Below, piece by piece: positions 32,205 through 49,660 of a stretch of DNA of 50,465 nt. The DNA is from a phage. The position numbers were made by a program, and so were the translations under genes. Below the pieces are notes generated by a model. The model saw only the letters and a list, made by a program, of their open reading frames with translations. It had not been told where the DNA came from and ran no database searches. The stretch lies in sequence record NC_105618.1; one strand, 5' to 3'. Every line of letters begins with the position of its first letter. The first letter of the stretch is position 1.

Positions 32205-33356
32205 ATGTCACAAGCTAAAATCACTACCGAGCAACTTATCGAAGAGCGCATGAGCGGACTTACACTTCGCGAGATTGCGGAAAAGTACGGCATGCACATT
32301 CGAACTGTTGAAGCTCGTCACGCAAAACTTGCAAAGGAAGGTCACTTCCACGGTAACGAGCATGTTGCTAAGAACGTACCGGAAGGATTCATGGTAAAAG
32401 GCACATCAACGATGATTCGCGGCGATGGGACCGAGGTAGTGCGATGGGTTAAGACCGATCAGGACCGTGAGAAGATTGCGGCAATGATGGAAGCAGCGCG
32501 TATTGCATTCTGTGAAGACTTGCCGAGAGCAAAACCAACTGAGCTACTCACATCGCAAGGGCTTACAACCGCTATTGGCAAGCTGGCACTCTACCCGGTG
32601 TTCGATCTTCACATTGGCGCGCTTGCTCACAAGCATGAATGCGGAGAGAACTACTCTACAGACGTAGCGGAAAAAGTGCTGAATGACTTCTTTAACTACG
32701 CGATCGATATTGCCCCGAACGCAGAGAAGGCTGTTCTGTTAATCGGCGGCGACTTCCTTCACTCAGACGGTCTTGATGCTGTCACCCCGGCAAGCGGTCA
32801 CGTTCTGGATCAGGATTCACGATATGCGAAATTGGTGCATGTGGCTATTCGATCGGTGCGAAGAGCTATCGACAAAATGCTGACTAAACACAAAGAGGTC
32901 GAAGTTCAGGTTATCGAAGGGAACCACGACCAGGCCGGAATGATTTGGTTGCGCGCTGCAATGGCTGCATACTATGAAGATGAGCCGCGAGTATTCGTTG
33001 ACGTTAGTCCTATGATTCTTCATAAGACCCGCTGGGGAAATACCTTGTTGGGATACACTCACGGTCACACGATGAAAAAGGCAGACACGCGACTTGCAGC
33101 GATGGCGGCAGACTTCCGTGCAGACTTCGGTGAAAGCAAATACGTGTATACTCACAGCGGACACTGGCATCATCAAACAATCACAGAGCACTCTCTCGGT
33201 ATTGATGAGGTTCACGGTCAGCTTGGGGCGAAAGACGCATACGCCGCGCGGGGCGGGTGGCGCTCATATCGCCAGGCGGCGGTAATCGTTTACGATAAAC
33301 AGTTTGGTGAAATCGGTCGATTCATCTATCGTCCAGAAATGACAGGATCGCACTAA
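32205..33356 (+). CDS. HTH domain fused to calcineurin-like metallophosphoesterase
   Basis: N-terminal LTLREIAEKYGMHIRTVEARH HTH; phosphoesterase motifs FDLHIG, GGDFLHSDG, GNHD, GHTH, GHWHH. Confidence 0.65.
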   Translation: MSQAKITTEQLIEERMSGLTLREIAEKYGMHIRTVEARHAKLAKEGHFHGNEHVAKNVPEGFMVKGTSTMIRGDGTEVVRWVKTDQDREKIAAMMEAARIAFCEDLPRAKPTELLTSQGLTTAIGKLALYPVFDLHIGALAHKHECGENYSTDVAEKVLNDFFNYAIDIAPNAEKAVLLIGGDFLHSDGLDAVTPASGHVLDQDSRYAKLVHVAIRSVRRAIDKMLTKHKEVEVQVIEGNHDQAGMIWLRAAMAAYYEDEPRVFVDVSPMILHKTRWGNTLLGYTHGHTMKKADTRLAAMAADFRADFGESKYVYTHSGHWHHQTITEHSLGIDEVHGQLGAKDAYAARGGWRSYRQAAVIVYDKQFGEIGRFIYRPEMTGSH

Positions 33357-33419: not shown

Positions 33420-33596
33420 ATGAAACGAGTTAAATGCATCCGAAATGATTCAAAAACGCTTCCATTCCGCGTAAATCAGATCTATAGTGTTGGTTATAAT
33501 TTCGGTGGTGGATTGTTTGAGATTTACGATGGTAGAGGTTCAACAATCCAAGCTCCTCTGAACGGTCATTACCTGGAATTTATTGAGCTAGATTAA
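33420..33596 (+). CDS. hypothetical small protein (58 aa)
   Basis: AGAGGG RBS; not in track (<60 aa); followed by terminator. Confidence 0.3.
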   Translation: MKRVKCIRNDSKTLPFRVNQIYSVGYNFGGGLFEIYDGRGSTIQAPLNGHYLEFIELD

Positions 33597-35352: not shown

Positions 35353-36921
35353 TTAACCCATCAGTCGAGGATTGATGAAAACAATATCATCAATACGGCA
35401 AGTGTAGTTCATTTCTTCGAGCGTGATCAGCAAACTATCGATTCGCTCAGCTACTTTCTGTTGACCATTAAACGGCGTAACGTTCCGACACTTCGCAACG
35501 ATGCTATGAATCGGTGCTCGGCCTTTGTTCTTCTTCGCGATCTCAGTGATAACATCAATCAGCTTTCGAGATTCAGCCTCATCACCAGCATACCCGGCTG
35601 CGCTTGCGGACGAAAGATAAGTCCTGGAAAGCTCATTGAAAATCATAATCGCTTCCTGCATTGTCTCAAGATCAATCTCACGATTAGATCGGTTCGGTGA
35701 TTCGCCCTCCCAATTCTTGATCGTGTGAAGAACTGAAGCAATGCGCAAAGCGTGCTTATCGAACTTACCAAGATGACCGCGTAGCATTGAGTGAGAGTAT
35801 TTCCCCCCGGCGGCGAAATCCGGCTCCATAGCCTGACGCGCCAGGTTTAATTCACGCATAGCGTTACGGCTAACAGAAAGAACAACGTTTTCCTCCTTCA
35901 TGATGTTATGCACAAGTCGGTAATATTTGCTAACCAATCCGCGATCGACTTCCTTATACAGTGCATCACCATTTTCATCGCAAAGAATACGAGTACCTAA
36001 AAGCGGTTCCTCGCGAACCAACAGGAAACGCTCAGATACACCGATTCCTCGCTGGCCTGCATCCATTATACCCTTGATTGTTTCATCCTGAGCAATTACG
36101 CAGATCGAACCTACCGGGCACAGAGACAAGTTGTTGTCCTGATTTGAGCGAGCTACCTCCATATGGTTTTTATCCCACGCCTTAAGAATAAGCTCACTGT
36201 TAGATTTCTTATCTGAACCGCCATACGTAAGCCCGAGCAATGTATTTATTGCCGTTGCCTCATCAGAGATAACGGAAAAGTGGCCCTGAACAGCGGCTAC
36301 TTTCGCAAGACCTTCCGGTGTAGGATCTGATACAGCAAAAACAATATCAGCCATCTTCTTGATCTTCTCTTCCAGTTTTTCTTTGTCCTCGTACAGTGCC
36401 GCAGTCGTATTACCCTTCGGGTCGTTTTTAATTTCCTTCTCGACCTGACGTAGCTGACTGGTTAATCGGGTGCGTTCCTTTTTGCGCTCTTCATTCAGTC
36501 GCTGAATCTCCGCACGCATAGGTGTAATCGCCGCTGAGTTAATCGCGGATTTACCTGTTGACGGTGGCTGGCTGATTACCATGTAAAGAGCGGTCGGTTG
36601 CTCTTCTCCGTGATATTGCACCCAAAACTTACCGAGCATCGCGGCTGAGATGCACCCGATGAAATGAGCGTACGCGGATGACACCGGGAACTGGACTGAT
36701 TCAGCTTTTGCTTTTGCATATTCGAATACCAGGTTATCGCCACCTAACGAAATCAGAGGGAACTTATCGTTGCCGCTATTGATATCGATCGGATCTTGCC
36801 AAAATGAAACTGAGTCACCATAGCTGTTTTCACGAATTGCGATCGCCACCGGATTAACTCCAGTGCTATTGGCGATCTCAATAATCTGTTGGTAATTCAG
36901 TTTTGGCTTAATATTAAACAT
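35353..36921 (-). CDS. putative P-loop ATPase
   Basis: deviant Walker A QPPSTGKS and Walker B-like FSVISDEAT; AAGGAG RBS before in-frame ATG 36921 (track start 36984 runs through promoter module). Confidence 0.55.
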   Translation of the reverse strand: MFNIKPKLNYQQIIEIANSTGVNPVAIAIRENSYGDSVSFWQDPIDINSGNDKFPLISLGGDNLVFEYAKAKAESVQFPVSSAYAHFIGCISAAMLGKFWVQYHGEEQPTALYMVISQPPSTGKSAINSAAITPMRAEIQRLNEERKKERTRLTSQLRQVEKEIKNDPKGNTTAALYEDKEKLEEKIKKMADIVFAVSDPTPEGLAKVAAVQGHFSVISDEATAINTLLGLTYGGSDKKSNSELILKAWDKNHMEVARSNQDNNLSLCPVGSICVIAQDETIKGIMDAGQRGIGVSERFLLVREEPLLGTRILCDENGDALYKEVDRGLVSKYYRLVHNIMKEENVVLSVSRNAMRELNLARQAMEPDFAAGGKYSHSMLRGHLGKFDKHALRIASVLHTIKNWEGESPNRSNREIDLETMQEAIMIFNELSRTYLSSASAAGYAGDEAESRKLIDVITEIAKKNKGRAPIHSIVAKCRNVTPFNGQQKVAERIDSLLITLEEMNYTCRIDDIVFINPRLMG

Positions 36922-36948
36922 CACAATAAACTCCTTAGTTGACGGTGT

Positions 36949-36993
36949 AAATGATACACCGCCAATGGTACACGCGTTTTGCAAAAAGTGCTA
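36949..36993 (-). promoter_or_regulatory. palindromic-motif promoter module
   Basis: minus strand TAGCA-N5-TGCAA, then hairpin CGGTGT...ACACCG with TATCAT. Confidence 0.45.
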
Positions 36994-36997
36994 TTGG

Positions 36998-37414
36998 TTA
37001 TAAGTATTTGGCCTCAAAGGTTGTGCCGTCTGCGATACTAAAACCAACCTCTTCGCGAAATAAGGTCCAGCGACAACCATCTTCATCAAAGATGTAACCA
37101 GCTACTCCACCGAGAGCGCGACCGCTTTCAACCTGGTAACGCTTGCCAACTTTGAATGATTTTTTCATTGGGTTGCGATGGTCAAGCCCGGTGCACTTGA
37201 GTGTTTTGGTTTTAAGTTCAGTGAATTTTGCGAAGAAGATTTCATCAGATCCGTGAATCTGTAATTCATCGTGCTTTTCAAGTTTTAAATACTTACCACA
37301 CTTTAACTTAACCTCACGAGTACCATCGTAGCGCTCTCGACCTTTGTACAGGTTGTTAACTTCAAATCCTGTGATTTTGTCTGCGGAAGTACATTTAAGT
37401 TTGATGGATTTCAT
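36998..37414 (-). CDS. hypothetical protein with repeated K.KC...GK.Y domain
   Basis: two copies of small motif shared with ORFs 44097, 45595, 46658. Confidence 0.5.
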   Translation of the reverse strand: MKSIKLKCTSADKITGFEVNNLYKGRERYDGTREVKLKCGKYLKLEKHDELQIHGSDEIFFAKFTELKTKTLKCTGLDHRNPMKKSFKVGKRYQVESGRALGGVAGYIFDEDGCRWTLFREEVGFSIADGTTFEAKYL

Positions 37415-37450
37415 TGCGTTAACTCCTGATTGGTTATCTTGAATAAGGTC

Positions 37451-37496
37451 ACTTTATCAAATGACCTTACGGCAATATTAACAAATCGTGCTATTT
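37451..37496 (-). promoter_or_regulatory. palindromic-motif promoter module
   Basis: minus strand TAGCA-N5-TGTTA, 22 nt, TAAAGT in hairpin AAGGTCA...TGACCTT. Confidence 0.45.
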
Positions 37497-37707
37497 ACCA
37501 GGGAATATAATCATCGTCGTCATTATCACCAATATCATCGCTTGGCATCTCGAAGTCGGGATTATATTCACTTTCTGCGTCCATATCCATATTCCCTAGC
37601 GCGTCGTCAAGCGTAATTTCTTTATATGCAACCTTGATACACCATTCCGCACTAAGCCCGGCATCGAGCGCGGCAAAATAACGGGTCCAGAAATTATCCT
37701 GTTCCAT
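37495..37707 (-). CDS. small highly acidic protein
   Basis: 70 aa, C-terminal DDIGDNDDDDYIPW; very low predicted pI. Confidence 0.45.
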   Translation of the reverse strand: MEQDNFWTRYFAALDAGLSAEWCIKVAYKEITLDDALGNMDMDAESEYNPDFEMPSDDIGDNDDDDYIPW

Positions 37708-37710
37708 TAA

Positions 37711-37935
37711 TTAGCTCCATGAATTAATGTAAATCGAGTTAGCCTCAAGCGTTGCGCGAACATCCGCATCTGTTGCATTTACTAAGCGCGATCCTGGTGT
37801 GCTGCCAATAACATTATTACCGTTCCGAGACTTAGTTACCGTCATTGAAATAAAACCGGAAGACTTATCCATTTTGATAACTACACGCCCTTTCGCGTTC
37901 AGATGCTTGATGATATTCTCAACTTTAATGCTCAT
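37711..37935 (-). CDS. hypothetical protein
   Basis: track ORF with upstream palindromic promoter module. Confidence 0.45.
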   Translation of the reverse strand: MSIKVENIIKHLNAKGRVVIKMDKSSGFISMTVTKSRNGNNVIGSTPGSRLVNATDADVRATLEANSIYINSWS

Positions 37936-37961
37936 TTTTAATTCCTTTGTTTCGTTTGGTG

Positions 37962-38013
37962 TGGGAGTAATATACCTTACTCCCTGTTTATTGTCTTTAG
38001 CAATTAGTGCTAT
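37962..38013 (-). promoter_or_regulatory. palindromic-motif promoter module
   Basis: minus strand TAGCA-N5-TGCTA, then hairpin GGGAGTAAG...CTCCC with TATATT. Confidence 0.45.
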
Positions 38014-38152
38014 CAGTATTCGGAAATTACTTTACACTCTTTGATTGTTCCACCTAGAACTACTTTCTGCATCATTGCTTTTTGGTGGCTATCATAAACT
38101 CGAACATTTTTTACGCTGTTAAATTTGCCAGTATAGAAAGTGTGAATATAAA

Positions 38153-38539
38153 TCATTTTTTACCGTCCCATGTTTGATACGCAGTCACAAGGTTAATGCT
38201 ACGGTCGAACTCGTCAATGCTAAGCGATCCGATTCGAACCAGTTCTTTATCATGCTTAATATCGATCATCCGGCTATATGGATGACCTGGCACGTATTTG
38301 AACAGTCGCTTTCTGTCAGCAATATCAGCGTTGATTCCATAGAATCTTCCTACTGCCGCCTTCACGCGCTCCATGATGTTTTTTTCGTGGATTGCTGCCG
38401 CGTTATTAAGCGCTGCAACCGTGCTTCCGTTAATCTTCGGTGATTTCGTTGTGATTTTATAAGTGTGGCTCATTATTCCCCCTAACCAGTCAGGATAGCT
38501 TTCTCGCTTCATCAATGATAACAGGTTCGAGACGCTCAA
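38153..38539 (-). CDS. hypothetical protein
   Basis: track ORF, TTG start. Confidence 0.4.
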   Translation of the reverse strand: MSVSNLLSLMKRESYPDWLGGIMSHTYKITTKSPKINGSTVAALNNAAAIHEKNIMERVKAAVGRFYGINADIADRKRLFKYVPGHPYSRMIDIKHDKELVRIGSLSIDEFDRSINLVTAYQTWDGKK

Positions 38540-38690
38540 GTCTAACTCGGAACGTGTTCATAAATCCTTCGTTATTCTTCAGTAGCTCGAATGCGTCTGT
38601 TGCCTCAATTGAGCTATTTCCCATGTAGGCAACTACGCTCTTTTGCGTCTTGCGTGAGATCGCAACCACTCGGTAGATATTATCACTCAT
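38490..38690 (-). CDS. hypothetical protein
   Basis: in-frame ATG 38690 overlapping upstream stop (ATGAGTGA). Confidence 0.35.
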   Translation of the reverse strand: MSDNIYRVVAISRKTQKSVVAYMGNSSIEATDAFELLKNNEGFMNTFRVRLERLEPVIIDEARKLS

Positions 38691-39054
38691 ACAATGCCTC
38701 CTTAACACGATCGGCAATGCAGGAGTTTACAGTGATTGAGTAGTTAGCCACGCCCCATAATGCAATATTGCCAAGCTCGGTACGCATAGATGGATTATTA
38801 AGCTGAATGATTGTCTCGCCAGTGTGGTTATCGACGAAGCGAGACACGCCAGAACGGTCCACCACGCGCGTTACGCGACTCACACACTCCATTGCATCAC
38901 TTACACCATAATAAGCGCTAATGGCGGCTCTCACGGCCTTCTCTTGCTTGTTATAAATCTTGCGCGCGATGTTCTCGATCGCAACGTGCTCTTTATCATC
39001 AGTCTTGATTGCCGTGCTGGCTGAGAAGTCAAGGTCAGTGAACTTCTTAAACAT
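38683..39054 (-). CDS. hypothetical protein
   Basis: in-frame ATG 39054 preceded by GAGGAAAGAA; promoter module upstream. Confidence 0.4.
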   Translation of the reverse strand: MFKKFTDLDFSASTAIKTDDKEHVAIENIARKIYNKQEKAVRAAISAYYGVSDAMECVSRVTRVVDRSGVSRFVDNHTGETIIQLNNPSMRTELGNIALWGVANYSITVNSCIADRVKEALYE

Positions 39055-39085
39055 GATTCTTTCCTCGCTTGCTGTTGATGGGATG

Positions 39086-39127
39086 ACTATACCAGCCATC
39101 ACGGATTCGCGTTTAGCAAAAAGTGCT
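39086..39127 (-). promoter_or_regulatory. palindromic-motif promoter module
   Basis: minus strand TAGCA-N5-TGCTA then TATAGT. Confidence 0.45.
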
Positions 39128-39299
39128 ATTCGATGATCTCTTTCTCAACAATCGTTGTGTAGTCGTACATGCTCTTTCCGGCGCGAATCTGTTCCTTCAT
39201 TCTGTTCTCGTACTGCTTTGCCTTCTTTTCATCAAGGTGAACAGTCTCTACATATTCACCCTCATATTGAACGCCGCCCATAACGATATATACGATCAT
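39123..39299 (-). CDS. hypothetical small protein (58 aa)
   Basis: ATGA overlap with upstream stop; not in track. Confidence 0.25.
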
Positions 39300-39676
39300 A
39301 ATCTTTCCTCCAGGATTTCACGGATACGGTTGATTGCGTCCATCTTATCGCAATCCCAACGAGTCGTTCCGTTATCCGGTCGTTCTTCGAACGCGAGACT
39401 TACCTCTTCGAGAAGGTTGTCAATGATAGCCTCCTTCTCGTCACCGTCCAGCTTTCCGAACTCAACCGATCCTACGTAACGATTGATATAAGCGATCATG
39501 CTTTTATGCTCTTTAATGGTAAAGATATCCGTGATACTGATCCCGGTATCGCGTTGCGTGATAACAACACGGTTGCTGGGGTGGATTGTCCCGCCCACTA
39601 GGCGATTGCAAATCTCAACCGTGAAACCTTTCTCATTTGCGCTATCAATTGCTGCCTGAAGTTTTGAATCTGTCAT
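39296..39676 (-). CDS. hypothetical protein
   Basis: track ORF; CCAATCAGAGGA leader. Confidence 0.45.
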   Translation of the reverse strand: MTDSKLQAAIDSANEKGFTVEICNRLVGGTIHPSNRVVITQRDTGISITDIFTIKEHKSMIAYINRYVGSVEFGKLDGDEKEAIIDNLLEEVSLAFEERPDNGTTRWDCDKMDAINRIREILEERL

Positions 39677-39707
39677 CTCGTCATTCCTCTGATTGGTTGA
39701 TGTGTTA

Positions 39708-39750
39708 AATATACCCCGATTACCTTCGGGGCGTTTAGCAATTCGTGCTA
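39708..39750 (-). promoter_or_regulatory. palindromic-motif promoter module
   Basis: minus strand TAGCA-N5-TGCTA, 22 nt, TATATT in hairpin CCCCGAAGG...CGGGG. Confidence 0.45.
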
Positions 39751-40086
39751 TTAAGCGATATCGAACTCAGCGGCATATGCTTTCTTGAAGCCAGCTTCAC
39801 GCATGGTGCGCTTGCTGATTTTGCGCGGGAATTTGTACTGGCTGTTGGGTTTAACCCACCAAAAACAGGCAGTTTCACGAACGATTTCATATTTACCGTA
39901 ACGGGTGAAGATGTCACGTTCAGCGTCAGGCTGATAAATACAGGTCAGGAATTTAGCTGCATTTTCTTCAGTTTTGATTTCTTCCCATACGAAGGAATCC
40001 ATACCGTTAACTTTGCAAGCTACCATGATGTACTCAACGCCGTTTTCGATTTTGATGATTTCGTTACCGCGATTTTCGTATTTCAT
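39751..40086 (-). CDS. hypothetical protein
   Basis: track ORF with upstream promoter module. Confidence 0.45.
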   Translation of the reverse strand: MKYENRGNEIIKIENGVEYIMVACKVNGMDSFVWEEIKTEENAAKFLTCIYQPDAERDIFTRYGKYEIVRETACFWWVKPNSQYKFPRKISKRTMREAGFKKAYAAEFDIA

Positions 40087-40124
40087 TTTCCTGCCCCTGA
40101 TGTGTATCTCGTTTCGATGAGGTA

Positions 40125-40167
40125 ATTATGCCAAATCACACCGATCGAGTTTTAACAAAAAGTGCTA
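40125..40167 (-). promoter_or_regulatory. palindromic-motif promoter module
   Basis: minus strand TAGCA-N5-TGTTA, 22 nt, CATAAT; overlaps 3' end of methyltransferase ORF. Confidence 0.45.
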
Positions 40168-40865
40168 TTTGCAATTGCTTTGAAAAATCCACGTGGCGAC
40201 AGCGATCGTATCAACTTCGTTTTGGCAGACTTGCCGCCCAGCTTGTTATGCTGCGCAGAGTACCCGTCAGGCAGGCTTACTGGCTTTCTCTCCGGCATGA
40301 CAAAATCGTCCGAGGTCCAAAGACACGTCTTTTTCGGATAAGCATCGCGCGGCGCAATATACATCGGGAACCAGGGGTGCGAGTCATTCTCAGGAAGGTA
40401 GCCGCCATACTCCCAGGGATTGAATGAGTGATCTGGTTTTCTCCAGGCAGATGACAGAACGCTAACCGGATTCTCAATGATGTAAGTCACGCCCAGGGCA
40501 TCGCCAATATTCGCAGCAATCCGGGCGGTGGCAACAGCCTTCTCCTGGAATAACGGATCACGCTCACGCTTACTTGCAAAGTGCGCAGCGCCACTAACAG
40601 CTAGGTCAGTGCATGGAGGAAAGGCCATGATTAAATCCGGCTTGCCATACACACCAGCGATAGCATCACGTTCGAACTTCTCATCAATGAAGACGTTCAC
40701 ATACTCAATGTTCGGATGCTCTACCCTGGCATTGTACTTTGCATAATCTCCGTGATCTGCCCCGTCAAAGTTGAATCACATCACCTTATGACCTCGCTTT
40801 GCCAGTTCATGACCAGCAAGGCCGGAACCGTCGAATAATGACCAGATTAATTTCACTTGTTGCAT
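40152..40865 (-). pseudogene. DNA cytosine-5 methyltransferase-like gene interrupted by in-frame TGA
   Basis: N-terminal 29 codons (LFDGSGLAG, motif I-like) end at in-frame TGA about 40776-40778; downstream frame continues with AFPPC (motif IV-like) and IIENP (motif VI-like). Confidence 0.5.
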
Positions 40866-40879
40866 TCTCCTGATTAACC

Positions 40880-41014
40880 TTATCGCTTACCCTGACCGTT
40901 GCAGGCTTGGCACGTGATTCTCTGCATTTTCCAGACCCCAGGGACTTCAGTGAATAACGGAACCATGTTAAATCCACGACCAGCACACTGACTACAAACC
41001 TGTTTTACTCTCAT
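40880..41014 (-). CDS. small zinc-ribbon protein
   Basis: 44 aa with CSQC ... CQAC; in-frame ATG 41014 with CCAATCAG-type leader. Confidence 0.35.
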   Translation of the reverse strand: MRVKQVCSQCAGRGFNMVPLFTEVPGVWKMQRITCQACNGQGKR

Positions 41015-41048
41015 TTCTGCTTCCTCTACTGATTGGTTGATGACCAGA

Positions 41049-41092
41049 ACTATACCCTGCCAACATGGATAAGTCGTTAGCAAAAAATGCTA
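41049..41092 (-). promoter_or_regulatory. palindromic-motif promoter module
   Basis: minus strand TAGCA-TTTTT-TGCTA, about 23 nt, TATAGT. Confidence 0.45.
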
Positions 41093-41701
41093 TTCCAATA
41101 ATTGCTCATTATTCCATCAATAGTGGAATAGTTGGAATAATTGCGATCCCGATTGATCTCGAATGATGAAACGTGATTATTGCATGGTGTGCAACAGTTG
41201 GTTGATTTGTTGCTGAGAATGCAATGATTGTGAGAGGGAGGATTTAGTGTTACCCGGTTCGCCTGGTAGTCATCTCCATTTTTAGCAAAAAGTGCTATCG
41301 ATTACACTTTAACTTGTCACGACTGTAATATTTGTCTAGAATCGCCATTGTGACAAAATTACACACTGTGACGCCTCTAAATATACATATAGATATATGT
41401 ATCTATATAATATATATAGTGTTTTTTTTATTTATATATATAGATAATTATATTGTAATAGCTGTGTATAGTTGTCTTACATTGTCTAGCGTACTGTTGG
41501 CATATTTCTATCTGCATGTTTATATATACAGTAATTTTTTGTGAGCTATATATTTCTATAGTGACTCTATACAGCTAGACAAATGTTACACAGCTTAAAA
41601 TTGGCTCGCAGGCGTTGACATATCTGCATTGCGCTGTCACAATGGCAATTGTTGACGCGTTATGACACCATTTACACACGAATAGACAAAGAGGTTATAT
41701 T
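41084..41701. promoter_or_regulatory. AT-rich divergent control region with repeats
   Basis: about 618 bp without ORFs of 60 aa or more; shares TCTATATAATATATATAG and GCTGTGTA..AGTTGTCT blocks with 21325-21851; GGAATA(A/G)TTG repeats. Confidence 0.6.
41283..41297. promoter_or_regulatory. isolated palindromic motif in control region
   Basis: TAGCA-AAAAG-TGCTA with no -10-like hexamer at the usual spacing. Confidence 0.35.
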
Positions 41702-42217
41702 ATGAGCAATACCAATCAGGAATTAAAAATCACCGACATGATTCGACTAACCTGCGACGCAATGTATCGCGACAAAGGCATGAGTGAGTTCTCTTTCGTG
41801 GCTGATGATATGGCCCTGGAAGGCGCGCGATTCTATTTCCGCAATCAGGATGTAAGCGATAGCGATCTTGAGTCTGCCGCTGCCGGATGGGTGGACCAGA
41901 ACCAGGCGGAGGTAGAGAAGCGATTCAAGTCTGCTTTCATCACTCCGATCATCACCCGTCACTTTTGCAAATATGGCAAGGTGGCAAAGGTTAAGGTAGG
42001 CCGAAATGACGCAGCAATCACAATGATAACGGTTATCGTTACAGACGAAGAGGTTCCTGTGAAGAAGCGCCGCAGTCGGAAAAAAGTTAGCCTGGCCGAC
42101 TGCCTGGACTCGTTTGACGTTGATGTTAGTAAGATGGGCGATAGCGAGTTAATGGTTCGCGATGTAAATGAGATCGTGCGCCAGATGAAAGCGCATATCG
42201 AAAAGTGTGGACTGTGA
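41702..42217 (+). CDS. hypothetical protein
   Basis: track ORF, AGAGG RBS. Confidence 0.45.
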   Translation: MSNTNQELKITDMIRLTCDAMYRDKGMSEFSFVADDMALEGARFYFRNQDVSDSDLESAAAGWVDQNQAEVEKRFKSAFITPIITRHFCKYGKVAKVKVGRNDAAITMITVIVTDEEVPVKKRRSRKKVSLADCLDSFDVDVSKMGDSELMVRDVNEIVRQMKAHIEKCGL

Positions 42218-42232
42218 GCACTGAACGGTAAA

Positions 42233-42275
42233 TAGCACTTTTTGTTAAAACCGGATCGGGATGGCTTGGTATAGT
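42233..42275 (+). promoter_or_regulatory. palindromic-motif promoter module
   Basis: TAGCA-N5-TGTTA, 22 nt, TATAGT in hairpin GGGAT...ATCCC. Confidence 0.5.
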
Positions 42276-42306
42276 TATCCCATCGGCAACGAATTAGGAA
42301 ACGAAG

Positions 42307-42501
42307 ATGGAAACGCAAATTGACGTAGTGGTTGTTCAGCGCGATTCAACTCACGAGAAGGGTCTGTTCAAGAAAGGAACCAAAATCACTATCGACCTTG
42401 AGGATATGGTTGCGTATCACTCGGGTCTTACCTGGAATGTGGTGCGAGTTGGCAGCGACTACAAACTCAAAGGCTTTAACACTTACTTTGCTGAGGCTTA
42501 A
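42307..42501 (+). CDS. hypothetical protein
   Basis: track ORF. Confidence 0.4.
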   Translation: METQIDVVVVQRDSTHEKGLFKKGTKITIDLEDMVAYHSGLTWNVVRVGSDYKLKGFNTYFAEA

Positions 42502-42503
42502 TC

Positions 42504-42971
42504 ATGACGACTATCACCGTATTTCTGGCTAAAGATGAATTGGACGGCGAAATGTCATTCTTCGCGTTCGAGCATAAAACCGGATCGCACTGGCACACGT
42601 ACACTCATTACACGGTCATCGCAATTGAGGCTTACGACGGCGATTTCACTGACAAGCTGAGTAATTTTATTGAAGCGGTTAAGGCTGGCGACGGCTGCGA
42701 GTGGAAAGAAGATCATGAAGTTATGCGAATGTATGAGATGATTGATCCGGTTCGCCTTGAGTCTTTCGAGCTTGGTTCTGGCGTGACCATTAAGGTGAGA
42801 AAGTCGGGTGAGTTATTGCCAGGAATGCGTGTGCTGACTGGTTACTCAGGACGTAAGGTATGGCGCACTGTATCCAAGATTCGCCAGCGATCGGCAACAT
42901 GCTACAGCGTATTCTTTGAAGATGGTTGGAATATGATGTCAGGAAGTGAAGTGAAGTATCTCACCAAATAG
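42504..42971 (+). CDS. hypothetical protein
   Basis: track ORF, coupled to upstream gene. Confidence 0.45.
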   Translation: MTTITVFLAKDELDGEMSFFAFEHKTGSHWHTYTHYTVIAIEAYDGDFTDKLSNFIEAVKAGDGCEWKEDHEVMRMYEMIDPVRLESFELGSGVTIKVRKSGELLPGMRVLTGYSGRKVWRTVSKIRQRSATCYSVFFEDGWNMMSGSEVKYLTK

Positions 42972-43011
42972 CACGAATTGTTAAAACAGGATCGGGGTAT
43001 CTTGCTATAGT
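42969..43011 (+). promoter_or_regulatory. palindromic-motif promoter module
   Basis: TAGCA-N5-TGTTA, 22 nt, TATAGT in hairpin GGGGTA...TACCCC. Confidence 0.5.
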
Positions 43012-43049
43012 TACCCCATTGAAACGAGATACCAATCAGAGGAATTACA

Positions 43050-43313
43050 ATGTCAATCGTCAAGAATCGCAAAGCAATCGAAGCTACCCGTCACAACAAG
43101 CAATACGCGATTTTCATCTCCCGCCACTGCTCAAACATCAATGGTGGCGTGCAGTATCGCCGCTATGCAGTGATTGAGCTTTCCCCGTACATTTACAAGG
43201 AGTATCGCGAAGAAAAAGGTAAGTGGGTTGAGATTGAAGGTTTAACGAGTTTCTTGATATGGAATGGTGAATTTCAGGGTTATGACGATATCAGCACTTT
43301 AATTGAGGAATAA
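43050..43313 (+). CDS. hypothetical protein
   Basis: track ORF; CCAATCAGAGGA leader. Confidence 0.45.
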   Translation: MSIVKNRKAIEATRHNKQYAIFISRHCSNINGGVQYRRYAVIELSPYIYKEYREEKGKWVEIEGLTSFLIWNGEFQGYDDISTLIEE

Positions 43314-43319
43314 ATAATT

Positions 43320-43547
43320 ATGCCACGTTACAGCAACCTAACTCAACTAACCCGCGTCAACGGGCACATGATCCCGGCAAAATCCACTCACTACGCAATG
43401 GGCGCAAAACACGGAGTCTATTTCAAGTGGCGCGGTCAATGGAACTTCACGGCGGTGAGTAATTTCTACATGCGCGTTCCGGGCGATGACCCGCAATCGG
43501 TAGTAGAAAACTCAATCGGTGACAACAAGATCGAGGTGATGAAATGA
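43320..43547 (+). CDS. hypothetical protein
   Basis: track ORF. Confidence 0.4.
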   Translation: MPRYSNLTQLTRVNGHMIPAKSTHYAMGAKHGVYFKWRGQWNFTAVSNFYMRVPGDDPQSVVENSIGDNKIEVMK

Positions 43548-43654
43548 ACTTCAATACAATTGCCCTATGGTCTGCCGTCTGGTTCTTCTGCATGGGTCAT
43601 GCCATTGTTGGGATCGTAATCATGTTACTACTGTGTGCCGGAGCTTTTGAATGA
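43544..43654 (+). CDS. hydrophobic micropeptide (36 aa, one TM helix)
   Basis: MNFNTIALWSAVWFFCMGHAIVGIVIMLLLCAGAFE; ATGA overlaps with both neighbours. Confidence 0.3.
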   Translation: MNFNTIALWSAVWFFCMGHAIVGIVIMLLLCAGAFE

Positions 43655-43824
43655 TGCGCATTCTAATTTGCATGATGGCGGCAGTCGCCATAACTATCCT
43701 GGTTGTGTCCGGCTGCGGAGAGGTAAAACAGCGATGCCATGAAACCGGGAACCAGGTTACTACGTTCGTGATGGTCGGCAACGTATTGCTACCAATCACA
43801 TCAAATGAGATCACTTGCGAATAG
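43651..43824 (+). CDS. mini-lipoprotein (57 aa)
   Basis: signal peptide MMRILICMMAAVAITILVVSGC with lipobox VSGC; mature about 35 aa with 3 Cys; not in track. Confidence 0.4.
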   Translation: MMRILICMMAAVAITILVVSGCGEVKQRCHETGNQVTTFVMVGNVLLPITSNEITCE

Positions 43825-43833
43825 GATTTAACA

Positions 43834-44025
43834 ATGGCTGATTTTATGCACCAAATGATTGCAGTATTCAAAGGCAGTGATGATGAGGAAGTTAAAGAGT
43901 GCTTTACCGTTGACAAGCCTTATAACGCGTCACTAACCAGCTTCGGGAATATCTCATTGCTTGATGATAATGGCGATCCCTGGATATTCGACGAAGACAC
44001 TGATTGCTTCGAGATTAAAGAATAG
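43834..44025 (+). CDS. small acidic protein
   Basis: 63 aa, Asp/Glu-rich. Confidence 0.35.
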   Translation: MADFMHQMIAVFKGSDDEEVKECFTVDKPYNASLTSFGNISLLDDNGDPWIFDEDTDCFEIKE

Positions 44026-44066
44026 CACTTTTTGTTAAAACTCAATATTGGGGTTGCGATATAGTA
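44024..44066 (+). promoter_or_regulatory. palindromic-motif promoter module
   Basis: TAGCA-N5-TGTTA, 22 nt, TATAGT. Confidence 0.5.
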
Positions 44067-44096
44067 ACTCCATCGACAACGAACGAGGACGAGAAC

Positions 44097-44585
44097 ATGA
44101 AAATCAAATTACTTTGCACTGGCGGTTACAAAGGCTTTACTCGCGACCTGGAAGCGGACCCTATCGTGGTTGACGCTGTGAAGTGTGATGATAGCCTGGG
44201 CGGCTACCGCGTTAATGTTGACGACCTGGTTAAAGCTGGCGTGTACGATCTGGATTATGGACTTTCGGTTAGCCCGGTAGTCGGCCCGGCAGATTTCAAC
44301 GAGAAGGACGGAACGATGTTCTTTTTCGATCGGGAAGTCCAGGCAAACATCAAGCCTCGCAAGGTTCGACTTCTCAACAATGGCGGTTATCCTATGCGAC
44401 CAGGTTATGAGAATCGCACGTTCCCGGTGATTGTTGACTTTGAAGAAATCACCGCGCACTTAGCTTATATCAACGGTGAACAGCTTAATGCTGTTGGATT
44501 CGTGGGAGGCATGAATCAAGAGGCGCTATGCTTCTTCCACTGTAAAGCCGAGCCGTTCGATATTGAGTGTGAGTTAGTATACTAA
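44097..44585 (+). CDS. hypothetical protein
   Basis: track ORF; N-terminus MKIKLLCTGGYKG resembles repeated small-domain family. Confidence 0.45.
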   Translation: MKIKLLCTGGYKGFTRDLEADPIVVDAVKCDDSLGGYRVNVDDLVKAGVYDLDYGLSVSPVVGPADFNEKDGTMFFFDREVQANIKPRKVRLLNNGGYPMRPGYENRTFPVIVDFEEITAHLAYINGEQLNAVGFVGGMNQEALCFFHCKAEPFDIECELVY

Positions 44586-44626
44586 GCACGAATTGTTAAA
44601 AGGGGATTTGGCCTGACTGGTATAAT
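44584..44626 (+). promoter_or_regulatory. palindromic-motif promoter module
   Basis: AAGCA-N5-TGTTA, 22 nt, TATAAT in hairpin GGGGAT...ATCCCC. Confidence 0.5.
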
Positions 44627-44657
44627 CCCCTACATCAACCACTAAGAGGAAGTCATT

Positions 44658-45164
44658 ATGTTGAGATTAGAAGATGTCAAATTCCCGATCAAATTTATCA
44701 GCTTTGGTTTCGGTGAAATTACGTTCATCAATGAAGGCAGGGGTACATGGGCCACTGAGGAAGTATCTCAGCTTAAGCTGGAATGGTTTATTGACAGGCA
44801 CAACGAAGTGAATAAAGAAAATTCACCAAATAAGGACTACCACTACATTATGAGTGACGGCCGGGATTCGTACAGCATGTATGATAATTGGAAGTTGGAA
44901 GGTTCAATATTCAACGGTGTAAAACCAGAAATCAAGCCGACGCTACAATGCACTCAGATCGAGAACATGCCATTGAGCGCTACGCTAAAAGGTGTCCAGC
45001 TTGATAGCGAATCCTGGCTTGAAATTACCGCCACACCGAAAACTATTGAGGCGCACGACGATATCATCACGCTGTTGCTGCATCACGGCGGTTTCAAGTA
45101 TAAGACGTTATCAGGTGAAATCAGCATTAAGCGCGGAACGCTTGTCCGCTACGAGGTGAAATAG
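44658..45164 (+). CDS. hypothetical protein
   Basis: track ORF, GAGGAAG RBS. Confidence 0.45.
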   Translation: MLRLEDVKFPIKFISFGFGEITFINEGRGTWATEEVSQLKLEWFIDRHNEVNKENSPNKDYHYIMSDGRDSYSMYDNWKLEGSIFNGVKPEIKPTLQCTQIENMPLSATLKGVQLDSESWLEITATPKTIEAHDDIITLLLHHGGFKYKTLSGEISIKRGTLVRYEVK

Positions 45165-45228
45165 TGAGCAATTGGCATAACGAACATGTAATGCAGTTTT
45201 ACCGTAATCGCATCAAGAAAGTTTTGAA

Positions 45229-45271
45229 TAGCACGAATTGCTAAACCTTCCGCAAGGCCATTTGATATAGT
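45229..45271 (+). promoter_or_regulatory. palindromic-motif promoter module
   Basis: TAGCA-N5-TGCTA, 22 nt, TGaTATAGT in hairpin AGGCCA...TGGCCT. Confidence 0.5.
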
Positions 45272-45310
45272 GGCCTTATTGAAGCAGGGCAACCAATCAG
45301 AGGAATCATC

Positions 45311-45598
45311 ATGAGCAAGAATCATAAGTTAAAAATTGCCCCGGTCCATTTCATCGGTGTAATGAACGGCACCAAAACGGCAGAGTTCCGCATCAATGAC
45401 CGCAACTTCCAGGTTGGTGATATCCTTGAGCTACGAGAGTTCGATCGCGATGAGTTTACCGGGTGGGAAGTTCACGCTAGGGTATCCGATGTTACAGACG
45501 TGACTCCTTACATCGATCGCGGGTATGACGAGCAACAGTGCGACTTCACGCAGTACGTGATGTTATCAATCAAACCTTACAGATGGGTTAGACCATGA
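45311..45598 (+). CDS. hypothetical protein (possible ASCH/PUA-like fold)
   Basis: 95 aa; pattern AEFRINDRNFQVGDILELRE; assignment by pattern only. Confidence 0.35.
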   Translation: MSKNHKLKIAPVHFIGVMNGTKTAEFRINDRNFQVGDILELREFDRDEFTGWEVHARVSDVTDVTPYIDRGYDEQQCDFTQYVMLSIKPYRWVRP

Positions 45599-46233
45599 AA
45601 TTTGAGTGCGTATCAAGTAGCGGATCTGGTTTCAAGTGTGGTAAGGTCTACGAAGGCGCTAGCGTCAATGACAATAGCTTCGTTATCACGGATGAGCGAG
45701 GTAGAAATGTTAACGTTGTCCGGCGTCACGAATACCAGGAAATATTCCTGCCGTATTGCGGTAGCTCAAAATATATCTTCCATCGAATCGTAGATGGTGT
45801 TAAATTTAAAGACGTAATCGAAGCAATCAACCAACTGCATAATAAAGAGGTAAAATTTATGAAATTCGAATGTATCAGTGATAACACCAAAAAATTTACC
45901 GTTGGCAAAATCTACGACGTGCCTACTGAGCACGCAAAGCACACTGTAGCGCTGACCGACGACACGGGCCGCCACCGCATTGCAACCGTAACGCACAACG
46001 GTGAAGGTCTTCGCTGGAATAGCGGCGGCACTAAGTTCGCAACTTTCGGCAAAAAGCGCAAGCGTACTTTTTGCGTAAATGGCAAGGTTGCAGCAAACAA
46101 GATCCACAACGTCAAGCCGTCGGAAGTTGACCGTAAGCCAGCACTGAAGTTTGAAGAGAAAGCGGATTTGTCTGGCCTAGCTATCGCTCTTGTTCTCCTG
46201 GTCGCTTCGATTTCGCTGATGTTCATCATGTAA
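45595..46233 (+). CDS. membrane-anchored protein with internal tandem duplication
   Basis: two MKFEC(V/I)S...GK(V/I)Y repeats then C-terminal TM helix LSGLAIALVLLVASISLMFIM. Confidence 0.45.
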   Translation: MKFECVSSSGSGFKCGKVYEGASVNDNSFVITDERGRNVNVVRRHEYQEIFLPYCGSSKYIFHRIVDGVKFKDVIEAINQLHNKEVKFMKFECISDNTKKFTVGKIYDVPTEHAKHTVALTDDTGRHRIATVTHNGEGLRWNSGGTKFATFGKKRKRTFCVNGKVAANKIHNVKPSEVDRKPALKFEEKADLSGLAIALVLLVASISLMFIM

Positions 46234-46240
46234 TTTTAAC

Positions 46241-46274
46241 GGGGAATCGGCTCTGAGCGGTTCCCCTTTCTTTT
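46241..46274 (+). terminator. intrinsic terminator
   Basis: GGGGAA...TTCCCC hairpin then TTTCTTTT. Confidence 0.55.
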
Positions 46275-46286
46275 GGAGAAAACACT

Positions 46287-46397
46287 ATGCCAGACTTTTC
46301 CAACTGGAATAACGAGCCGCCATCATTTCATGAGTTGCTATTCTGCCTCCTGGTCCTGACATTATCTCTTAAGGGTGTTTTATGGCTACTATCATGA
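46287..46397 (+). CDS. possible hydrophobic micropeptide (36 aa)
   Basis: GGAG RBS; MPDFSNWNNEPPSFHELLFCLLVLTLSLKGVLWLLS; approximate coordinates; competes with track ORF 46382-46600. Confidence 0.2.
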   Translation: MPDFSNWNNEPPSFHELLFCLLVLTLSLKGVLWLLS

Positions 46398-46584
46398 CAG
46401 CAGAAGATGCAGCGCTTGACGCAGTGGAAGGAATGCGCCCAAATACCTCCAGAATCGCACACTACTACAAATCTGAGGTGTCGGCAGTGCAATTGGTCCA
46501 CGAAATTTTAAGGCTCCCACAAGTCGATTCAGCGCGCGTGGTGACGTGCTTAAAAAATTATTTTTGCATCACTATTAAAACGAA

Positions 46585-46627
46585 TAGCACGAATTGCTAA
46601 AACCTATCAAGGGGAATGCGCTATGAT
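46585..46627 (+). promoter_or_regulatory. palindromic-motif promoter module
   Basis: TAGCA-N5-TGCTA, 22 nt, TATGAT in hairpin GGGGAAT...ATTCCCC. Confidence 0.5.
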
Positions 46628-46657
46628 TCCCCTACACCAAAAAACGAGGGAACACTC

Positions 46658-47104
46658 ATGAAACATTTGATTTGCATTGAAACACCTAACGATGAATACA
46701 CCCTGCACGGCATCGGAATGTTCAAAGGTCACTACATGACAGCAAGTATTTATGATGCGCGTCGCGGCGATGGCGATCTGATGATTACCTCAAAAGAGGT
46801 TAATCCGTACATCATGCAGAATCTTGGAAATAACGAATATATGGCCTACGGCTGCAACGCGGTGTATAAGCATATCAAGATCCGCAAGCGTGTCGTGCGA
46901 TCATTCAAGAAAATTGCAATGAAACACTGGAAGATGAGCAAGAAAGATGCCGGACATTGGGCGCGTGACGTTGCATATTCATACTTCTACCGTAACGGCG
47001 AATCCTGCTACTTTCTGATCGATGAACTTATGGAAAACTACGGTGGCGACTTCAGTCAGGGTAGCTTTGATGACTGGGCCAACTATGAGATCAGTTGCTG
47101 GTAA
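46658..47104 (+). CDS. hypothetical protein
   Basis: GAGGGA RBS before in-frame ATG 46658 (track start 46616 lies inside promoter module). Confidence 0.45.
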   Translation: MKHLICIETPNDEYTLHGIGMFKGHYMTASIYDARRGDGDLMITSKEVNPYIMQNLGNNEYMAYGCNAVYKHIKIRKRVVRSFKKIAMKHWKMSKKDAGHWARDVAYSYFYRNGESCYFLIDELMENYGGDFSQGSFDDWANYEISCW

Positions 47105-47147
47105 TAGCACGAATTGCTAAAACTTGCTCAAGGGTATTTGATAGAAT
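47105..47147 (+). promoter_or_regulatory. palindromic-motif promoter module
   Basis: TAGCA-N5-TGCTA, 22 nt, TAGAAT in hairpin. Confidence 0.5.
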
Positions 47148-47186
47148 GCCCTTCGTTGAGTTAAGCAACCAATCAGAGGAATTACT

Positions 47187-47390
47187 ATGAAAACTATTAA
47201 CGGAATGAGCAACGAAACGAGAACGCAGATCGTTAACATGCTAATCGGTATGGCTGACGATATTCAGAATAGCCAGGTCGTTATTGATTCATGCAATCAG
47301 ACTCGCGAGAGTAAATTTGAATCATCCGGCTACAAAATTGTTGAAGAAGAATTAACCATCAAAATCATTCGCGTACAGGAGAAAGCATAA
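47187..47390 (+). CDS. hypothetical protein
   Basis: track ORF; CCAATCAGAGGA leader. Confidence 0.4.
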   Translation: MKTINGMSNETRTQIVNMLIGMADDIQNSQVVIDSCNQTRESKFESSGYKIVEEELTIKIIRVQEKA

Positions 47391-49227: not shown

Positions 49228-49457
49228 TGTTCGGTTTAAGCGAGGCGGAGTGGAATGTTGTAAAGCGTGCCGCGAAAGAATTAAACAAATTCGTCAGCGG
49301 AATGAAGAAAGAAGATCGCAAGAACGATAAGATCATGATTGATGTAATCTCGACTCACCACAAAAAGGTCGAGCCACTCATCGACCGATATAAATTTGTA
49401 TGGACTGCCGGGTACATTGCTGGGCGCGTAGGGAACAAAGAAGGGGATTACGAATAA
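49227..49457 (+). CDS. hypothetical protein
   Basis: track ORF, GGGAGAGG RBS. Confidence 0.4.
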   Translation: MFGLSEAEWNVVKRAAKELNKFVSGMKKEDRKNDKIMIDVISTHHKKVEPLIDRYKFVWTAGYIAGRVGNKEGDYE

Positions 49458-49660
49458 TGGCTAACTTACCGAAGAAAGGCGAGCAGGTTCGATGTGTCAC
49501 TTCACGCAATAGCGATGCTTTCTCTGCTGGTTGTTCTTACGATGTGGAAAAGGTTAGTAAAGCAAAGAGACTCGTATATGTGTACGGCGACGATGGAAAC
49601 TTGCATGAGATTGATTACCCGCAGGATATGACTAAGGGACAATTCGAAATTAATGATTGA
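49457..49660 (+). CDS. hypothetical protein
   Basis: AAGGGGA RBS before in-frame ATG 49457. Confidence 0.35.
   Translation: MANLPKKGEQVRCVTSRNSDAFSAGCSYDVEKVSKAKRLVYVYGDDGNLHEIDYPQDMTKGQFEIND

Follow-up and report, generated by a model that had tools for sequence, protein, structure and literature searches.

Gp54 of phage Bas11 is a nonessential protein that is bound directly by the defense protein CapRelSJ46 (PMC11578894). It is an alternative trigger of CapRelSJ46 and contacts the pseudo-zinc-finger domain of CapRel, with residues A7, G24, and I25 involved; binding occurs via partial unfolding and strand addition, and the substitutions A7V and I25V each largely abolish activation (PMC11578894). 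Only the Bas11 protein is known to bind CapRel, near-identical homologs do not, and its fold has been termed "very rare" (PMC11578894). A second described system is the Pfam family DUF7244, which was assigned to the SH3 clan in a 2026 paper (PMC13164509). With the DUF7244 hidden Markov model (HMM) at an E value of ≤1e-5, a stand-alone "SH3" protein was found in 188 of 522 Drexlerviridae, and a role in the cell wall or lysis was proposed for this protein of T1-like phages (PMC13164509). Here, we describe the phage sequence NC_105618.1, a stretch of 50,465 nucleotides (nt) that we refer to as the window, and report that it harbors seven copies of one small domain of about 55 to 65 residues, distributed over five proteins designated S, A, E, B, and H. 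Judged by profile comparison, the seven copies represent one domain of a widespread phage and bacterial family that is covered in part by Pfam DUF7244 and DUF6501, and structural models indicate that three of them are six-stranded barrels with the fold of Gp54.

A nucleotide search with the region 36900-47200 matched 284 phage records. Among the closest were Escherichia phage LeonhardEuler (Bas13), IME18, and Shigella phage Sfin-1, at approximately 89 to 90% identity over 86 to 92% of the query. LeonhardEuler is classified in Drexlerviridae, Tunavirinae, Tunavirus, and the window is a Tunavirus (T1-like) genome. In the LeonhardEuler annotation, the genes in the region of A, B, and two further genes considered below, C and D, are all labeled "hypothetical protein." The five proteins and their parts are listed here, with barrels and helices as predicted and lengths in amino acids (aa).

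33420-33596, plus strand: S, a 58-aa stand-alone barrel that matches Pfam DUF7244 over its full length and phrog_4788
36998-37414, minus strand: A, 138 aa, two barrels, A1 and A2
37217-37414, minus strand: A1, the N-terminal barrel of A, aa 1 to 66
37001-37216, minus strand: A2, the C-terminal barrel of A, aa 67 to 138, with an inserted GRALGGVAG loop
43834-44025, plus strand: E, 63 aa, a single barrel at about aa 18 to 63
45595-46233, plus strand: B, 212 aa, consisting of B1, a linker, B2, and a tail
45595-45792, plus strand: B1, the first barrel of B, aa 1 to 66
45793-45858, plus strand: the B1-B2 linker, with a helix at aa 71 to 83 in the AlphaFold2 model
45859-46056, plus strand: B2, the second barrel of B, aa 89 to 154
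46063-46227, plus strand: the B tail, a disordered basic linker (aa 157 to 191) followed by a transmembrane helix (aa 192 to 211, 46168-46227)
49457-49660, plus strand: H, 67 aa, a single barrel; phrog_4927

The initial annotation, made from the sequence of the window, had noted a short motif twice in A and twice in tandem in B. We cut A and B into halves and compared units by Smith-Waterman alignment against 1,000 shuffles. B1 and B2 gave a score of 72 against a shuffle mean of 24.1 (z score, 10.9), a value reached by 0 of 1,000 shuffles. The pairs A1-B1 (z, 3.9), A2-E (3.7), and A2-B2 (3.1) were marginal, and A1-A2 (1.6), A1-B2 (0.9), and B1-E (0.4) were not significant. For profile comparisons, ortholog alignments of each unit were built from homolog searches, from 15 related phage loci, and from a profile search run exhaustively on 1.84 billion representatives; the indexed homolog searches yielded T1-like orthologs only, and the distant relatives came from the exhaustive search. 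When these ortholog families were compared with HHalign, the probability was 97.1% for B1-B2 (P = 7e-11), 87.5% for B2-A1, 77.9% for B1-A1, and about 55% for B against A2. An outside family was assembled from 56 units of unrelated proteins, and B1, B2, A1, A2, and E each matched it at 95.0 to 98.1% (A1, 95.3%; A2, 96.8%; E, 95.0%). The presence of two copies in each of A and B is thus borne out, for B by the direct comparison of its halves and for A by the match of each half to the outside family.

An HMM built from the outside units only was run with filters off on the 867 stop-to-stop open reading frames (ORFs) that measure 30 aa or more in a six-frame translation, with reversed sequences as a control. 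Independent E values were strong for B2 (2.2e-10), E (1.3e-8), B1 (2.3e-8), and A2 (1.2e-6) and weaker for H (6e-4), S (2.1e-3), and A1 (0.015); the next ORF followed at 0.55 and the best reversed decoy at 0.63, which leaves a gap between the seven copies and the noise. E, H, and S, found in this search, are additional to the set that had been noted initially, and a final HMM built from all units detected no further copies among the ORFs of the window. Cross-matches to PHROGs pointed the same way, with B2 weakly matching the family of H (phrog_4927) and both B2 and E weakly matching phrog_14592. The proposal that several proteins from both strands of the nonstructural region reuse a single small fold is supported, with a count larger than first given.

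It could be argued that there is no family at all and that the MKxxC...GKxY motif is a chance similarity among small lysine-rich phage ORFs. The nonsignificant pairs mentioned above would be expected under this explanation, and two of the copies claimed in the initial annotation, at the N termini of C and D, do prove by HHalign to be chance resemblances. The z score of B1-B2, the profile-profile probabilities of 95 to 98% to the outside family, the clean gap below the seven copies in forward versus reversed searches, and the fact that two independent structural models share the same unique top match in the PDB (see below) all speak against it, and we regard chance similarity as extremely improbable.

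The two ORFs that had been proposed to carry weaker copies are as follows.

44097-44585, plus strand: C, phrog_9595, not a member by sequence
46616/46658-47104, plus strand: D, phrog_10642, not a member by sequence

The N terminus of C gave pairwise z scores of ≤1.1 against the units of A and B and HHalign probabilities of ≤12.3%, and its best alignment consists of seven columns, MKxKLxCT, which is the resemblance that had been noticed. The N terminus of D gave z scores of ≤0.5 and HHalign probabilities of ≤1.4% against any unit. None of the three HMMs matched C or D at an E value of ≤10, and searches of PDB sequences with C and D found no relative. Membership of both is rejected on the pairwise, HMM, and HHalign comparisons; alignment upheld the initial assignment for the ORFs at 36998-37414 and 45595-46233 and did not support it for those at 44097 and 46658. 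The PHROG match of D (phrog_10642) starts at residue 15 of the ORF, which is the Met at 46658. C displays a weak similarity between its own halves (z, 3.2; HHalign, 11% over 10 columns), and its C-terminal half matches the separate phrog_13367 (E = 4e-12). Possibly, C is built of two modules with a different fold.

The relationship to DUF7244 (PF23896) differs among the five proteins. S clears the gathering cutoff of 27 bits by far, with 99.7 bits (E = 9e-29) over profile positions 1 to 57 of 57. Scores below this cutoff were obtained for A (16.3 bits), B (16.4 bits), and isolated A1 (13.4 bits), and E, H, and isolated B1, B2, and A2 show no match at an E value of ≤5. Since A, B, E, and H fall below the cutoff, a DUF7244 HMM search at E ≤1e-5 would not list them. 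The subthreshold matches of A1 and B1 are nevertheless in register and have the pattern MK-x-K-C...F-x-V-G-K-x-Y...DD-x-G in common with the family, and outside relatives of A, B, E, and H exceed the cutoff. A, B, E, and H also differ from the described DUF7244 protein in lying outside the lysis module, in the two-barrel structure of A and B, and in the membrane anchor of B. By profile comparison, A, B, E, and H are thus distant relatives, and only S is a formal Pfam member. For DUF6501 (PF20111; cutoff, 23.8 bits), no protein of the window matches at an E value of ≤1; outside relatives that pass are P0071 (41.4 bits), P0087 (55.3 bits), P0092 (73.0 bits), and P0103 (25.1 bits), and outside DUF6501 members are often also DUF7244 members, with tandem copies of the same motif.

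The exhaustive profile search returned 75 proteins at an E value of ≤1e-3. Giant matches (a 3,030-aa HYR_4C protein, a 3,346-aa YadA protein, and cadherin proteins) were rejected, as they are sums of many short weak matches to DD-x-G. The other inspected matches proved to be small proteins of phages or bacteria in which the motif K-x-K-C...(L/F)-T-x-G-K-x-Y-x-V...D-D-x-G occurs one to six times in tandem, and the suggestion that the repeat be sought in other phages is thus answered by widespread relatives, often in tandem arrays. One of these, P0076 (736 aa), consists of six tandem barrels and the N-terminal domain of a dATP/dGTP diphosphohydrolase (PF18909, 84.9 bits), and this is the only informative domain fusion among the outside relatives. 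The profile of the units did not find a relative among PDB sequences (best E value, 0.31).

The fold was modeled with AlphaFold2 without templates, from 23 orthologs for B and 12 sequences for A. The mean predicted local distance difference test (pLDDT) score of the B model is 76, with most of the barrels at about 90. The model consists of six-stranded barrels at aa 2 to 66 and 88 to 153, a helix at aa 71 to 83, a disordered basic segment at aa 157 to 191 with a pLDDT below 50, and a helix at aa 192 to 211. A1 is also six-stranded (pLDDT, approximately 80), and structure prediction supports one common fold for B1, B2, and A1; the model of A2 is poor (pLDDT, 40 to 56). Comparison with the PDB gave each of the two models a single strong match, Gp54 of phage Bas11 (9axb), on which the six-stranded barrels superpose better than on other solved folds, and a structure search of BFVD returned uncharacterized viral proteins only. 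On the basis of these models, A1, B1, and B2 are predicted to be six-stranded barrels with the Gp54 fold. A canonical SH3 or SH3b domain has five strands and a 3-10 helix, whereas the models of B1, B2, and A1, like Gp54, have a sixth strand; the proteins described here are not canonical SH3 or SH3b domains.

The window also encodes a homolog of Gp54 itself, which the initial annotation had likewise missed.

42307-42501, plus strand: Gp54 homolog, 64 aa, PF25180, a relative of the seven copies at the level of the fold only

This is the only ORF in the window that matches PF25180 (121.9 bits; cutoff, 27), and it matches 9axb with an E value of 4e-13. The seven copies all lie outside the Gp54 sequence family, and Gp54 of Bas11 (9axb, PF25180) lacks the strand-1 Cys, the tyrosine of GK-x-Y, and the DD turn of the family described here. 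With the Gp54 HMM, no unit scored better than an E value of 0.011 (8.8 bits), and the HMM of the outside units did not match Gp54. A permissive HHalign comparison of Gp54 with the family gave a collinear alignment of 54 columns (16%; P = 0.0016), which pairs F21-K-K-G24 of Gp54 with the F-x-x-G of the family and G40 with the glycine of DD-x-G, a hint of distant homology. The homolog in the window has V7 and T25 in place of A7 and I25 of the Bas11 protein. Given the reported effects of A7V and I25V (PMC11578894), the copy in the window is probably not a trigger of CapRelSJ46.

The initial annotation had further suggested repeated duplication and a diversifying family. The seven copies are only 11 to 29% identical over aligned columns, the individual copies fall into separate PHROGs or ortholog families and are annotated as coding sequences (CDSs) in relatives, and ratios of nonsynonymous to synonymous substitution rates (dN/dS) against 7 to 13 related phages are 0.02 to 0.03 for A1, A2, B2, and Gp54, 0.05 to 0.07 for E and H, and 0.16 for B1. 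The copies are therefore old paralogs under purifying selection and not a currently diversifying set, and diversifying selection can be rejected for the close orthologs. Only B1 and B2 look like a lineage-specific tandem pair.

B is found in 67 phage records. The C-terminal membrane anchor that had been proposed for it agrees with the helix at aa 192 to 211 in the AlphaFold2 model. This single helix lies at the extreme C terminus of the 212-aa protein, follows the K/R-rich segment at aa 157 to 191, and is combined with the lack of an N-terminal signal, as in tail-anchored proteins; the sequence of the tail reads KKRKRT...LSGLAIALVLLVASISLMFIM. The combination of a barrel and a C-terminal hydrophobic tail is kept in the distant relatives P0045, P0070, P0112, and P0113, and the T1 protein CPTT1_010 has the same barrel and tail-anchor architecture. 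Because a basic linker precedes the terminal helix, the positive-inside rule predicts that the barrels of B sit on the side of the inner membrane that faces the cytoplasm.

B2 corresponds to the N-terminal barrel of CPTT1_010, a protein of 124 aa, and T1 starts this gene at the ATG equivalent to Met89 of B. In the window, a Shine-Dalgarno-like sequence, AAAGAGGT (45844-45851), precedes the in-frame ATG at 45859 (Met89) by 8 nt. The rate of synonymous substitution (dS) in the B1-B2 linker (45793-45861) is 0.038, versus 0.26 to 0.58 in the other coding segments analyzed, and the linker sequence is conserved across 14 related loci; T1, too, has kept it ahead of its 124-aa gene. The low dS, the Shine-Dalgarno-like sequence, and the start of the T1 gene at the same ATG raise the possibility that B yields two products, the 212-aa protein and a 124-aa protein consisting of B2 and the anchor. 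The start of B overlaps the stop codon (ATGA) of an ASCH/DUF3850 gene (Pfam, 57.4 bits). The T1 locus (L014) contains neither the ASCH/DUF3850 gene nor B1 (region 45311-45858 of the window), and it keeps in-frame sequence for aa 73 to 88 of B. This retention suggests that T1 lost the ASCH gene and B1 by deletion and that they were not inserted in the other phages. E and B1 were both undetected in the part of the T1 genome that was examined.

A is far more widely distributed, being found by tblastn in 823 phage records across Drexlerviridae; many of the matches cover only aa 62 to 138, and A2 is the best-conserved part of the protein across this family. The records include 21 that are labeled as Campylobacter phages, with genomes of about 47 kb. 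In many relatives of A (P0049, P0053, P0056, P0075, and others), an unrelated N-terminal module (MKVIRNSDNKLMKARI...FQVRELAKGSKW...) stands in place of A1 and A2 is conserved, which points to module swapping within the gene. In the window, the gene immediately downstream of A encodes the DUF3987 helicase (region 35353-37414, minus strand). In a Braunvirinae phage and a Tlsvirus phage (L016 and L017), A is upstream of a gene of about 1.58 kb that we liken to the helicase gene by size only, with two small genes in between in the Tlsvirus phage. A 610-bp metagenome contig (P0058) contains a 114-aa ORF with a helicase-like N terminus fused to the C-terminal part of A2, the reverse of the genomic gene order, and is probably a chimera of assembly or recombination.

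S is flanked by the exonuclease gene (32205-33356) on one side and by the genes for holin, endolysin, and spanin on the other, which is the position of the "standalone SH3" of PMC13164509. H is found in 102 phage records and matches phrog_4927 with an E value of 2e-31; its start (ATG) overlaps the end of the preceding ORF at the stop codon, and it is an annotated 67-aa CDS in relatives. By sequence inspection, no unit carries an N-terminal signal-like hydrophobic stretch.

Taken together, we consider it probable, with some reserve, that the seven copies form a family of Gp54-fold barrels that serve as cytoplasmic binding modules, each specialized by its context. The conserved motif consists of the strand-1 Cys, F-x-x-G-K-x-Y at the loop before strand 2, and a D-D-x-G turn. 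As the conserved residues are a Cys, hydrophobic or aromatic residues, and turn glycines, we read them as mainly structural, a pattern typical of a scaffold, and the tandem arrays of the outside relatives lead to the same reading. The barrels would then be a constant scaffold carrying variable binding surfaces. A would act with the DUF3987 replicative helicase or in replication, S with the lysis cassette, and B would tether one or two barrels to the inner membrane, on its cytoplasmic side, by means of its C-terminal tail anchor. E, H, and Gp54 would be free single-barrel accessory proteins. Our best guess is that the targets are proteins, because Gp54 binds CapRelSJ46 directly by strand addition, and the binding of Gp54 by CapRelSJ46 is compatible with an accessory binding role.

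The alternatives differ mainly in the nature of the target. SH3-like small barrels include many nucleic acid binders, and the copies could bind nucleic acids in the manner of Sm, KOW, or Tudor barrels; A would then assist the helicase on DNA, and the other proteins would target RNA or DNA during takeover. The near-universal presence of A, its strong constraint, and its position directly upstream of the replicative helicase gene agree with such a role, as does the fusion of six copies to the diphosphohydrolase domain in P0076. The units have no sequence match to nucleic acid-binding families in Pfam or the PDB, however, their motif of Cys, hydrophobic or aromatic residues, glycines, and an acidic DD turn contains no basic patch, and the sole characterized relative of the fold binds a protein (PMC11578894). 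Nucleic acid binding is plausible for A but, as an explanation of the family, unlikely. Dedicated anti-defense proteins or decoys, an activity that the initial annotation had also entertained, would imply that each paralog neutralizes a different host immunity protein and that Gp54 is the member caught by CapRel. B and H are accessory by their distribution, as is E, which like B1 was undetected in the examined part of T1; the genes stand among small nonstructural genes behind the best promoter-like sites of the region, and the authors of the Gp54 study speculated that Gp54 may inhibit another defense system (PMC11578894). The orthologs are nonetheless under purifying rather than diversifying selection, and A is a core protein encoded in the replication module. 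Such an activity is possible for the accessory copies, and for the family as a whole we think it quite unlikely.

The role proposed previously for the stand-alone DUF7244 protein would make the copies SH3b-like peptidoglycan-binding modules that assist lysis. In its favor, the ortholog of S was classed as DUF7244 of the SH3 clan and occupies a strict position beside the holin, endolysin, and spanin genes in those 188 Drexlerviridae (PMC13164509), and S is in the same lysis-adjacent position here. Yet six of the seven copies are encoded away from the lysis genes, and only S adjoins them; unlike SH3b domains with access to the cell wall, the copies have neither an export signal or signal peptide nor a fusion to or corelease with a lysin. 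In B, the basic linker and the C-terminal anchor come after the barrels, which would be cytoplasmic by the positive-inside rule, and Gp54 acts in the cytoplasm, where it binds CapRelSJ46 (PMC11578894). Peptidoglycan binding is therefore very unlikely, except perhaps for S.

Several points weigh against cytoplasmic binding modules of the Gp54 fold, the reading that we favor. The term "binding module" comes from the fold class and the tandem-array architecture, and the libraries assign no function (PHROGs, "unknown"; NCBIfam, no names). The synteny of A and the helicase gene is no evidence of a physical or functional link. The alignments behind the models are shallow (23 and 12 sequences), and A2 was modeled poorly. 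By default HHalign, Gp54 matches the seven copies with a probability of ≤6%; the tie to Gp54 is a structural one, and convergence on a small barrel may account for it. The test with the outside profile is only partly independent, as units of the window formed part of the profile used to recruit the outside units; many of the outside units pass Pfam's own DUF7244 or DUF6501 cutoffs unaided.

We searched the literature on DUF6501, on the genes of Bas13/LeonhardEuler, and on phage transposon sequencing (Tn-seq) and found nothing on these proteins, and we found no paper in which Gp54 is connected with DUF7244 or with the Drexlerviridae SH3 protein. Two results appear to be new, namely, the paralogs that had gone unnoticed and the structural link of a DUF7244-like family to Gp54. 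Direct binding by a bacterial immune sensor has been shown for few phage proteins, Gp54 of Bas11 among them, and if the fold of Gp54 represents a large multicopy family, its native function could be approached through better-conserved paralogs, such as A. The lysis role of the stand-alone DUF7244 "SH3" protein would need to be reexamined, as it would be one of seven copies, most of them cytoplasmic and encoded far from the lysis genes, and five "hypothetical" genes in each Tunavirus genome could be annotated structurally. As long as a binding partner is missing, the practical gain stays modest, and what results is a useful structural annotation and a testable lead on the native role of Gp54. 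As a speculation that we hold to be doubtful, the Gp54 barrel could be a diverged branch of DUF7244/DUF6501, and T1-like phages could possess a toolkit of six proteins with eight barrels, each recognizing a separate partner of host or phage origin through partial unfolding with strand addition, some acting in counter-defense, with host sensors tuned to the scaffold.

Two observations concern the surroundings of these genes. The strongest terminator-like hairpin of the region (46241-46266; 9 pairs, 6 of them GC, with a T-run) lies directly 3' of the stop codon of B, and three of the four promoter-like sites scoring 10/12 in the scanned region cluster in the gap upstream of 41702 (41314-41701); overall counts of promoter-like sites were not above those of shuffles. 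The cluster and the hairpin suggest one predicted transcription unit, 41702-46233, that includes Gp54, E, C, and B. On the minus strand at 40155-40856 is a gene for a Dcm-like C5 cytosine methyltransferase, with 94% identity to the LeonhardEuler protein over 234 aligned aa. It has an in-frame stop at about 40776-40778 where LeonhardEuler has Cys27 (HKVM*FNF), so that either the gene is inactivated, or it restarts to give an N-terminally truncated product of 182 aa, or the stop is a sequencing error.

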